Assembly (NCBI RefSeq): GCF_054482525.1
Contig: NZ_CM137006.1
Strand: one strand, 5' to 3'
DNA: 64,000 bases
Each line of letters opens with the position of its first letter. Position 1 is the first letter of the stretch. The notes under the pieces were generated by a model. That model searched no databases and was not told the origin of the DNA. It was given only the letters and a program-made list of their open reading frames with translations. Shown one piece after another: positions 45,807 through 46,853 of this stretch. The position numbers and the translations under genes are program-made.

Positions 45807-46244
45807 ATGTTAAAAATCAGAATGTCGCGACCATCTGAAGCACCAGAAATTATCCAAATTTGGAAAAATTCCGTTGATGCCACACACGATTTTCTTACAG
45901 CCCATGACCGGCAGGAGATTGAAAAAGAAGTTGTCAGCTTTTTTTCAGAAACCCCTGTGCTGGTAGCAACAAACCAGGAAGATCAGCCACTAGGATTCAT
46001 GTTTTTGCATGAGGGACATTTAGAGGCTCTTTTTGTTGATGCGTCAGCTCGCGGACTTGGCGTCGGGAAACATCTGATCTCACATGCGCTGGCACTACAT
46101 CCTGATCTAAGCGTTGATGTAAATGAACAAAATCATCAAGCTGTAGGCTTTTATCAACATATGGGCTTTAAACTTTCAGGACGTTCCGAGCGGGACAATC
46201 AAGGCAGACCCTACCCTCTATTACATCTTTATAAGGCAATGTGA
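45807..46244 (+). CDS. GNAT-family N-acetyltransferase (prophage cargo)
   Basis: 146 aa from ATG 45807 with AAGGAAG RBS; acetyl-CoA-binding-like segment ARGLGVGKHLISHAL. Confidence 0.7.
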   Translation: MLKIRMSRPSEAPEIIQIWKNSVDATHDFLTAHDRQEIEKEVVSFFSETPVLVATNQEDQPLGFMFLHEGHLEALFVDASARGLGVGKHLISHALALHPDLSVDVNEQNHQAVGFYQHMGFKLSGRSERDNQGRPYPLLHLYKAM

Positions 46245-46268
46245 CATGATAATTTTAGGAGAATTACA

Positions 46269-46853
46269 TCATGGATTTTTTTGGCTGAAAGCGACAATGT
46301 AAGAACAACTCTGGCCGCTATCTGGGTTTCTCATTTGGTACTCGCTGGCAAAGGTAAGAGCAAGACAATCACCGGCTTGTAAATGATGAGTCTGATGATT
46401 GACTCGAAAATCAAGGCTGCCGCTTAACATCCATAGAGTTTGTCCAGAAAGATGCTCATTTGCAGAGGCAGGGATAGTCAATTGCCCCATAGGGGGGATT
46501 TCAACTTTTATTAGTTCCGGACATGCACCCGCTGGGGACAAAGACCAGCGGGTAATGCCTGTTTCTTCATCAATCCAATGTTGTTGCTGGTCAGCCAAAA
46601 GTACAAGTGAATTCTGTTGCATCTCAAGCTCTGCAAAAAGCTTTGATAGCGTAATATTCAGTGCATTAGCTAACCGACTAAGTATTGTTGCACTGGGGCT
46701 TGAAGTGCCTCGTTCAACTTTGCTGATCATCGCCTGACTGACACCAGATCGTTGGGCAAGCTCTGTAACAGTCAAGTTTCGAGACTTTCTGAGCTTGAGT
46801 AACAAACGTGCAATATCGCTATCGACTATCTGATTTTTAGCTCTTTTATCCAT
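46269..46853 (-). CDS. XRE-family HTH regulator with C-terminal cupin domain (prophage cargo)
   Basis: 194 aa; HTH LTVTELAQRSGVSQAMISKVERG; cupin-like C-terminal half. Confidence 0.7.
   Translation of the reverse strand: MDKRAKNQIVDSDIARLLLKLRKSRNLTVTELAQRSGVSQAMISKVERGTSSPSATILSRLANALNITLSKLFAELEMQQNSLVLLADQQQHWIDEETGITRWSLSPAGACPELIKVEIPPMGQLTIPASANEHLSGQTLWMLSGSLDFRVNHQTHHLQAGDCLALTFASEYQMRNPDSGQSCSYIVAFSQKNP

Follow-up and report, generated by a model that had tools for sequence, protein, structure and literature searches.

Two convergent genes in a 64,000-nucleotide stretch of Escherichia coli DNA (contig NZ_CM137006.1 of RefSeq assembly GCF_054482525.1; hereafter the window) encode a GNAT N-acetyltransferase and an XRE-family transcription regulator, which combines a helix-turn-helix (HTH) with a C-terminal cupin domain. 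Together with their upstream regions, they form a self-contained, horizontally mobile cassette (45695-46945), carried here as a moron of a lambdoid prophage in icd. The GNAT gene is preceded by a 33-bp operator-like element. The features of the locus are as follows.

45160-45327, minus strand: 3' remnant of icd, host DNA outside the right prophage junction; translates to the Icd C-terminus
45520-45694, no strand: start of the prophage arm, from the homology onset to the cassette; common to phages with different attachment sites
45695-45806, plus strand: left arm of the cassette, upstream of the GNAT gene, with the element, the candidate promoter and a ribosome-binding site
45717-45749, plus strand: operator-like element, 33 bp, two 13-mers, defined in a 21-locus alignment
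45722-45750, plus strand: candidate sigma-70 promoter of the GNAT gene as read from the sequence (-35 TTGTGA at 45722-45727, 17-bp spacer, -10 TAAATT at 45745-45750)
45807-46244, plus strand: GNAT N-acetyltransferase, YjaB-like, 145 aa
46245-46268, no strand: gap between the convergent stop codons, 24 bp
46269-46853, minus strand: XRE-family transcription regulator with HTH and C-terminal cupin, 194 aa
46854-46945, minus strand: right arm of the cassette, upstream of the regulator, with conserved GGCATAAT; homology ends at 46946 or 46943
46879-46884, minus strand: candidate -10 of the regulator (CATAAT, in conserved GCATAAT); putative promoter

Both genes are real and conserved rather than chance open reading frames (ORFs). 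The same two coding sequences, equal in length, are present in the RefSeq annotation of O55:H7 CB9615 and O157:H7 LSU61. In the window, the ORF pair meets with facing stop codons. Because the genes are convergent and 24 bp apart they would not be co-transcribed, and on this point the ORF coordinates agree with the original prediction, which was made from the window alone. Enteric loci have stop-to-stop gaps of 8-24 bp, and Acinetobacter loci have gaps of 50-77 bp. A terminator scan found no consensus intrinsic terminator in the 24-bp gap, and no hairpin between the convergent genes was conserved across the 20 pair loci that were folded. A conserved terminator was rejected on these grounds; the T-run corresponds to the QKN codons at the C-terminus of the regulator. 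Some databases hold a 185-aa reading of the GNAT (ATG at 45687). We rejected this in favor of the start at 45807, because orthologues from Serratia to Acinetobacter begin MLKIRMSRP and because the promoter element falls inside the extension. A Shine-Dalgarno-like AAGGAAG precedes the ATG at 45807.

Homology breakpoints place the pair at the end of a prophage. To its left lie bluF, bluR, ycgX, an IS200 copy, iraM and the icd remnant, which corresponds to a partial isocitrate dehydrogenase pseudogene in the RefSeq annotation of LSU61 and of the uropathogenic E. coli (UPEC) strain 536. To its right lie ompT (47351-48304), appY, and the lambdoid tail-fibre, lom and J genes. Homology to CB9615 (envY/argU-side prophage), N24 (yecD-side) and phage PhiR29_1 sets in at 45520/45521. 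Judged from these sequence comparisons, a lambdoid prophage has integrated in icd, and the locus is its right (attR) end. Since the icd remnant lies to the left, phage-shared sequence runs from 45520, and ompT, appY and the tail genes lie to the right, the pair is the outermost prophage cargo, with the GNAT start codon approximately 290-480 bp inside the junction. The gene order (icd remnant, cassette, ompT, appY, tail fibres) marks a cargo slot between the tail genes and attR. The icd remnant and the breakpoints thus bear out the earlier claim that the pair sits at the cargo end, just inside the att junction. The cryptic K-12 prophage DLP12 retains only 45520-45582 of the arm left of the cassette and lacks 45583-47237, the stretch containing the pair.

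Breakpoints also delimit the cassette itself. Homology with strain 536 ends at 46946, and the variant copy of the type found in phage Evi and in strain 2015C-4136CT1 (79.5% identical) aligns across 45695-46943. Together these breakpoints define a 1.25-kb cassette (45695-46945) that includes the regions upstream of both genes.

The acetyltransferase belongs to the YjaB-type family. It exceeds the cutoffs (in brackets) of three Pfam models, scoring 52.6 bits (23.6) for Acetyltransf_10, 43.0 (20.7) for Acetyltransf_1 and 42.3 (27) for Acetyltransf_7. The NCBIfam model that fits YjaB (NF007807/PRK10514) matches residues 1-142 of the 145 with 234.4 bits against a cutoff of 134, and the protein also matches PDB 2KCW, the E. 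coli YjaB structure solved by nuclear magnetic resonance, with an E value of 6e-49. An acetyl-CoA motif, R82-G-L-G-V-G87, can be read from the sequence. The GNAT residue Y116 aligns with the catalytic Y117 of YjaB, mutation of which abolishes activity (PMC6199490). Models of resistance and polyamine enzymes score below cutoff: AAC(6') group E 16 bits (140), PaiA 19.7 (250), ArsN1a 22 (170) and RimI 29 (86). No toxin-type GNAT or DUF1778 model is among the Pfam/NCBIfam matches of the pair. The profiles thereby place the GNAT in the YjaB-type family, and not with the toxin, aminoglycoside or spermidine enzymes that the original prediction had listed as possible subfamilies.

The cassette GNAT represents a distinct paralogous clade and is not the orthologue of K-12 yjaB. 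Its identity is 72% with the pair-linked enzyme of Acinetobacter haemolyticus compared with 55%, over the full length, with K-12 YjaB, and E. coli genomes carry their own yjaB as well (annotated in a weak match of the genome scan). We found no K-12 orthologue of the regulator, which scores 44.9 bits against an equivalog cutoff of 211 in the PuuR model. The 55% paralogue YjaB is therefore the only close K-12 counterpart of either gene, and the original prediction is not undone by characterized K-12 orthologues of the pair.

The regulator combines a clear HTH domain with a cupin that is recognized by its fold. HTH_3 matches residues 19-72 with 62.1 bits against a cutoff of 23; Cupin_2, on sequence, reaches 21.1 bits, below its cutoff of 27.2. 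An AlphaFold2 model built with 13 orthologues as input (mean predicted local distance difference test, pLDDT, 83) begins with five to six helices and continues as a beta-barrel whose strands span residues 91-191. Foldseek matches this model to the HTH-cupin regulator 1Y9Q of Vibrio cholerae (E 7e-14, 23% identity) and to stand-alone cupins at template modeling (TM) scores of 0.7-0.78, including 2PFW, 7ZYC and 2OYZ (0.73-0.78), with root-mean-square deviations of 2.7-2.9 A. The modeled fold, rather than the sequence score, confirms the C-terminal cupin. Profiles, model and structural search together uphold the GNAT and XRE-cupin identities first proposed for the two genes. Judged from the orthologue alignment, the cupin lacks the HxH...E metal motif, a lack more in keeping with ligand sensing than with catalysis. 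Across the 13 orthologues, 18 of the 20 residues in the HTH segment S36-A55 do not vary. Upstream of the gene, GCATAAT is kept between enteric and Acinetobacter loci.

A sharply bounded element lies upstream of the GNAT gene and nowhere else in the loci examined. It consists of two 13-mers, CACTATTGTGAAT at 45717-45729 and CACTATAGTAAAT at 45737-45749, with cores ACTATTGT and ACTATAGT spaced exactly 20 bp apart in all aligned loci. Of the two cores, ACTATAGT reads as a perfect palindrome and ACTATTGT misses being one by a single base. Across the regions upstream of GNAT in 21 loci, the aligned block reads cACTATTGTgAat.T...TtcACTATAGTAAATT, and the flanking columns fall to near-zero or background information content. 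The core 8-mers are invariant or carry one mismatch in 21/21 loci, which span Enterobacterales and Acinetobacter. Each pair locus retrieved has a single copy, upstream of GNAT in every case, and the window contains no other. A search of 2.9 million viral contigs gave nine exact matches, each of them in front of this GNAT-regulator pair. The element is absent upstream of K-12 yjaB and from the locus of a regulator paralogue that lacks a GNAT. The near-invariance of the HTH segment across the same taxa is matched by that of its presumed DNA target.

The candidate sigma-70 promoter of the GNAT gene overlaps both element cores. Within the 5' untranslated region, enteric loci have an inverted repeat, TTTGTAT-N4-ATACAAA, but an RNA element was rejected, as folding in the window is no stronger than in shuffled sequence (z = 0.57); the region has no Rfam match. 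CACTATAG (the second core plus flank, 45738-45746) is like the core of T7 class III promoters, a likeness of only 8-9 bases that we regard as coincidence.

The cassette is mobile within E. coli. The intact pair is present in approximately 118 of 5426 complete genomes and occupies at least five different prophage positions, as listed here by strain, site and context.

Window and LSU61: icd site, with ompT
CB9615: argU/envY site (envY side of the DLP12-type site), with ompT
UPEC strain 536: icd site, with a second GNAT and sitABCD
N24: yecD site, with ompT
2015C-4136CT1: 81% variant in the nin region of a Rac/Qin-like prophage, flanked by hokD and the replication genes

Strain 536 has no ompT at this position; what follows the cassette there is the gene of a second GNAT, of 150 aa and unrelated to the first, and then the iron/manganese transporter sitABCD. 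Isolated phages carry the cassette too, namely PhiR29_1/2 (99.7% identity) and Evi (79.5%). In PhiR29_1/2, the cassette lies beside the genome end, and the end of the PhiR29_1 record bears a tRNA fragment.

Beyond E. coli, the pair is found in several genera and on different replicons. A one-genome-per-species scan recovered 19 gammaproteobacterial loci with regulator identities of 61-91%, from Leclercia, Pseudescherichia, Cedecea, Serratia, Edwardsiella, Raoultella, Mangrovibacter, two Enterobacteriaceae, nine Acinetobacter species and one mis-binned E. coli contig. Further carriers are Proteus, Klebsiella aerogenes, and the megaplasmids of Pantoea. Outside E. coli the cassette mostly sits in chromosomes, so it is not specific to phages. 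A 3.2-kb contig (SFGN01000201.1) in a metagenome-assembled genome labeled 'Lachnospiraceae bacterium' holds the E. coli cassette at 99% protein identity; this contig was probably mis-binned and derives from E. coli or a phage.

The two genes stay together while their surroundings change. In 19/19 species loci, the same GNAT is found convergent and just downstream of the regulator (one GNAT is split by an insertion), and clustering of the flanking ORFs leaves only GNAT and regulator in common. The exceptions are a GNAT-less second paralogue from a genome with a full pair as well, the split GNAT, and one frameshifted GNAT from a further Serratia marcescens strain. More distant regulators, of 43% and 35% identity, adjoin GNATs from other subfamilies, in divergent orientation in one case and in co-directional orientation in the other. 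The original prediction paired a sensing regulator with a modifying acetyltransferase, and named shared synteny in other prophages as a check. This pairing is strongly supported by conserved synteny: the pair recurs in 19 species with unrelated flanks, at the E. coli prophage positions given above, in phages and on Pantoea plasmids.

The GNAT half of the cassette is the half seen to decay. Approximately 300 complete genomes, mostly typical O157:H7, match the cassette only from GNAT position ~341-348 onward; the region concerned corresponds to window 45807-46150. In O157:H7 H6437, only the last 93 bp of GNAT remain, fused to a truncated autotransporter gene downstream of minE. Compared with LSU61, a stretch of some 13-16 kb is gone, from ymgJ, pdeG, ariR, bluF, bluR and iraM to the icd remnant and the GNAT promoter with its element. 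Typical O157:H7 keep the regulator and ompT intact. With GNAT and its promoter lost and the regulator intact, this O157:H7 lineage has an orphaned regulator. In A. haemolyticus CIP 64.3, the split GNAT holds an insertion of approximately 2.5 kb, and here, as in the S. marcescens strain with the frameshifted GNAT, the regulator is intact. The GNAT-less paralogue belongs to the Enterobacteriaceae genome MGYG-HGUT-00110. It is 74% identical to the regulator, has an identical HTH recognition segment, and has no adjoining GNAT; no ACTATWGT element was found within 6 kb of it. The full pair is located elsewhere in that genome.

The closest described parallels are XRE-cupin factors of Pseudomonas. 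These are local repressors. Each binds at the core promoter of a neighboring gene, for an enzyme or a transporter, and is horizontally exchanged with it (PMC7901475). One of them, PA1884 of P. aeruginosa, was experimentally shown to repress a single target, the GNAT gene PA1885 (PMC7901475, Trouillon et al. 2021). The cassette resembles PA1884/PA1885 in having an XRE HTH-cupin regulator with a neighboring GNAT as its sole conserved partner, in the conservation and exchange of regulator and target as a unit, and in a presumed site within the target's core promoter. The cassette regulator is not, however, an orthologue of PA1884: among 113 regulator homologues (E<=1e-10), most of them nameless entries, there is no Pseudomonas-named protein. 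The cassette also differs in its convergent genes, in a candidate operator of two near-palindromes rather than one palindrome, in its carriage by temperate phages, and in that regulation here is predicted.

Other known systems share parts of this arrangement. PuuR, the putrescine-responsive HTH-cupin repressor of E. coli, and 1Y9Q resemble the regulator in domain architecture and fold, but score low in similarity (45 bits against 211 in the PuuR model; 23% identity for 1Y9Q) and differ in gene neighborhood. K-12 YjaB shares with the GNAT its NF007807 score above cutoff, its size, the acetyl-CoA motif and the catalytic Tyr, but yjaB has no adjacent XRE-cupin gene and no ACTATWGT element, and the cassette GNAT is accessory and phage-borne. 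The K-12 gene has been described as monocistronic (PMC6199490). Like lambdoid morons and b-region cargo (lom, bor, and ompT in DLP12), the cassette lies between tail-fibre genes and attR, has its own candidate promoters, and is variably present, absent from DLP12 and found in the isolated phages PhiR29_1/2 and Evi. It departs from typical morons in comprising two genes with their own regulator, and in being chromosomal or plasmid-borne outside E. coli.

We propose that the regulator, made from its own promoter, would bind the two ACTATWGT sites over the candidate -35 and -10 and so repress the GNAT gene. A small molecule would then bind the cupin domain, which lacks metal-binding histidines; the regulator would be released and GNAT expressed. 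The enzyme might then acetylate an amine, most likely the inducer itself or a related xenobiotic or metabolite, with protein lysines as the alternative. We infer binding to the element and repressor action, and likewise ligand relief and the nature of the substrate, largely by analogy; repression is favored because the conserved element is exclusive to this position and because the Pseudomonas XRE-cupin factors are repressors. The conserved linkage of the pair, the near-invariant HTH segment, the acetyl-CoA motif with the catalytic Tyr, and the distant regulators that adjoin other GNATs count in favor of the proposal as well. That the regulator controls GNAT is probable. The longer chain, in which GNAT is repressed and a ligand relieves that repression, is slightly favored over its absence. 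With a small-molecule substrate added, the same chain is tentative and a little less likely true than false; that substrate is a guess, because YjaB is reported to acetylate protein lysines.

Several observations weigh against the proposed repression. The element could be the target of another factor, or just an unusually conserved promoter. As a candidate operator, it consists of direct repeats of short near-palindromes 20 bp apart, whereas the described XRE-cupin operators are single palindromes, and the genes converge, where a divergent or adjacent-promoter arrangement is usual. The region upstream of the regulator, its own promoter included, has no copy of the element and so gives no hint of the autoregulation that is common among XRE regulators. 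The candidate GNAT promoter is weak, with 8/12 consensus positions, and is unlisted by a scan that requires 9/12. One distant regulator homologue, of 42% identity, has no GNAT neighbor. The reported activity of YjaB, the closest characterized relative, on protein lysines rather than small molecules (PMC6199490, PMC10874396) speaks against the proposed substrate.

This last point leads to the most serious rival, in which the regulator still governs the GNAT gene but the enzyme, once induced, would acetylate lysines or N-termini of host or phage proteins in the manner of K-12 YjaB, and would not detoxify a small molecule. The family score above the NF007807 cutoff, the full-length 55% identity and the kept catalytic Tyr are all in line with this, and YjaB is reported to acetylate protein lysines when overexpressed and in vitro (PMC6199490, PMC10874396). 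Yet the physiological role and substrates of YjaB itself are unknown, and RutR, a test protein, was not acetylated by it (PMC10891134). The pair-linked clade is also distinct from YjaB (72% versus 55%), the host has its own yjaB, so that the cassette GNAT is presumably not redundant with it, and XRE-cupin units typically sense metabolites and control the enzymes or transporters for them (PMC7901475). We regard a protein substrate as rather unlikely, though a serious contender. It is improbable that the regulator does not control GNAT at all, the two being unrelated co-traveling cargo or the regulator acting on other genes such as ompT or host genes. The separate promoters of convergent genes would allow this, as would the regulator start, which faces ompT across approximately 500 bp in the window, and the survival of the regulator after GNAT loss in typical O157:H7. 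Against it, linkage and orientation are kept across two bacterial orders with no other common neighbor, and only the stretch upstream of GNAT has the conserved element. A role for the regulator in ompT control was rejected, as ompT is missing from most contexts and the cassette edge at 46945 excludes the ompT promoter region.

A toxin-antitoxin module of the TacT/AtaT/KacT kind, in which the HTH protein would neutralize a tRNA-acetylating GNAT toxin, is very improbable. The pair does unite a GNAT with a DNA-binding protein on a mobile element, and the HTH domain gives weak generic matches to HipB, HigA and MqsA antitoxin models, but each of these stays well short of its cutoff. Known modules (TacAT, AtaRT, KacAT, ItaRT) are co-directional operons with an upstream ribbon-helix-helix or DUF1778 antitoxin. 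Here the genes converge and form no operon, the partner is a 194-aa XRE-cupin protein, and the GNAT scores in the YjaB family (234 bits), with no toxin model among its matches and no PADLOC match. YjaB itself was routinely overexpressed, with no clear phenotype reported (PMC6199490). An anti-phage defence system was likewise rejected, since PADLOC gives no match for the GNAT and only generic HTH matches for the regulator. Returning to the proposed repression with ligand relief, one specific version is that the cassette is a mobile inducible resistance or detoxification determinant: an amine toxin, for example an amino-acid-analogue antibiotic or a plant or microbial metabolite, would bind the cupin, and the derepressed GNAT would inactivate the toxin. 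We consider this version unlikely, though less so than unlinked genes or a toxin-antitoxin module. A link to arsenic or organoarsenicals was rejected, as no third gene recurs in the 19 loci and ArsN1 reaches 22 bits against 170. The Serratia pair does adjoin an ArsP-type permease and the A. haemolyticus pair an ars operon; neither neighborhood is conserved elsewhere.

The region around the cassette varies among strains. Window positions 47238-49959 (ompT-appY-tfaX) are 98.4% identical to the right end of DLP12, and this segment lies at icd in the window versus argU for DLP12. In CB9615, LSU61, N24 and PhiR29_1, an alpha/beta hydrolase gene follows ompT where the window has appY. Since the gene that follows ompT differs among strains, the cargo region is mosaic. 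Farther left, between ycgX and iraM, an IS200/IS605-type transposase ORF (TnpA-like, HIVFAPKYRR motif) occupies 43652-44161 on the minus strand; no insertion sequence is annotated at the matching position in LSU61.

The cassette design, a local XRE-cupin regulator with an adjacent enzyme, has already been described, including one GNAT case; the cassette itself is an uncharacterized example. We found no published description of it in the literature on YjaB and XRE-cupin regulators, and nothing on phage PhiR29. Database annotation is generic ('acetyltransferase' and 'helix-turn-helix domain-containing protein'), apart from that of PhiR29_1, which reads 'putative N-acetyltransferase YjaB' and 'Xre-family with cupin domain'. 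What distinguishes the cassette is its strictly conserved convergent layout, its dual short-palindrome element maintained from E. coli to Acinetobacter, and its place as a moron beside virulence-associated cargo.

The YjaB family has a solved structure and reported lysine acetylation, but no known physiological role. The pair-linked clade adds to this a dedicated regulator and a sharply defined operator-like element. Identifying the inducer should lead straight to the substrate, which makes the cassette an easier entry than K-12 yjaB, which has neither regulator nor element. Among pathogenic E. coli, temperate phages of O55:H7, atypical O157:H7 and UPEC 536 carry the cassette beside ompT or sitABCD. 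Given its broad distribution among phages, plasmids and genera, any resistance or fitness trait that it conferred would be widely mobile. If the detoxification reading is true, the YjaB family would gain a new class of substrate, and the cassette would offer a ready-made switch, responsive to a ligand and equipped with a 33-bp operator kept from E. coli to Acinetobacter.

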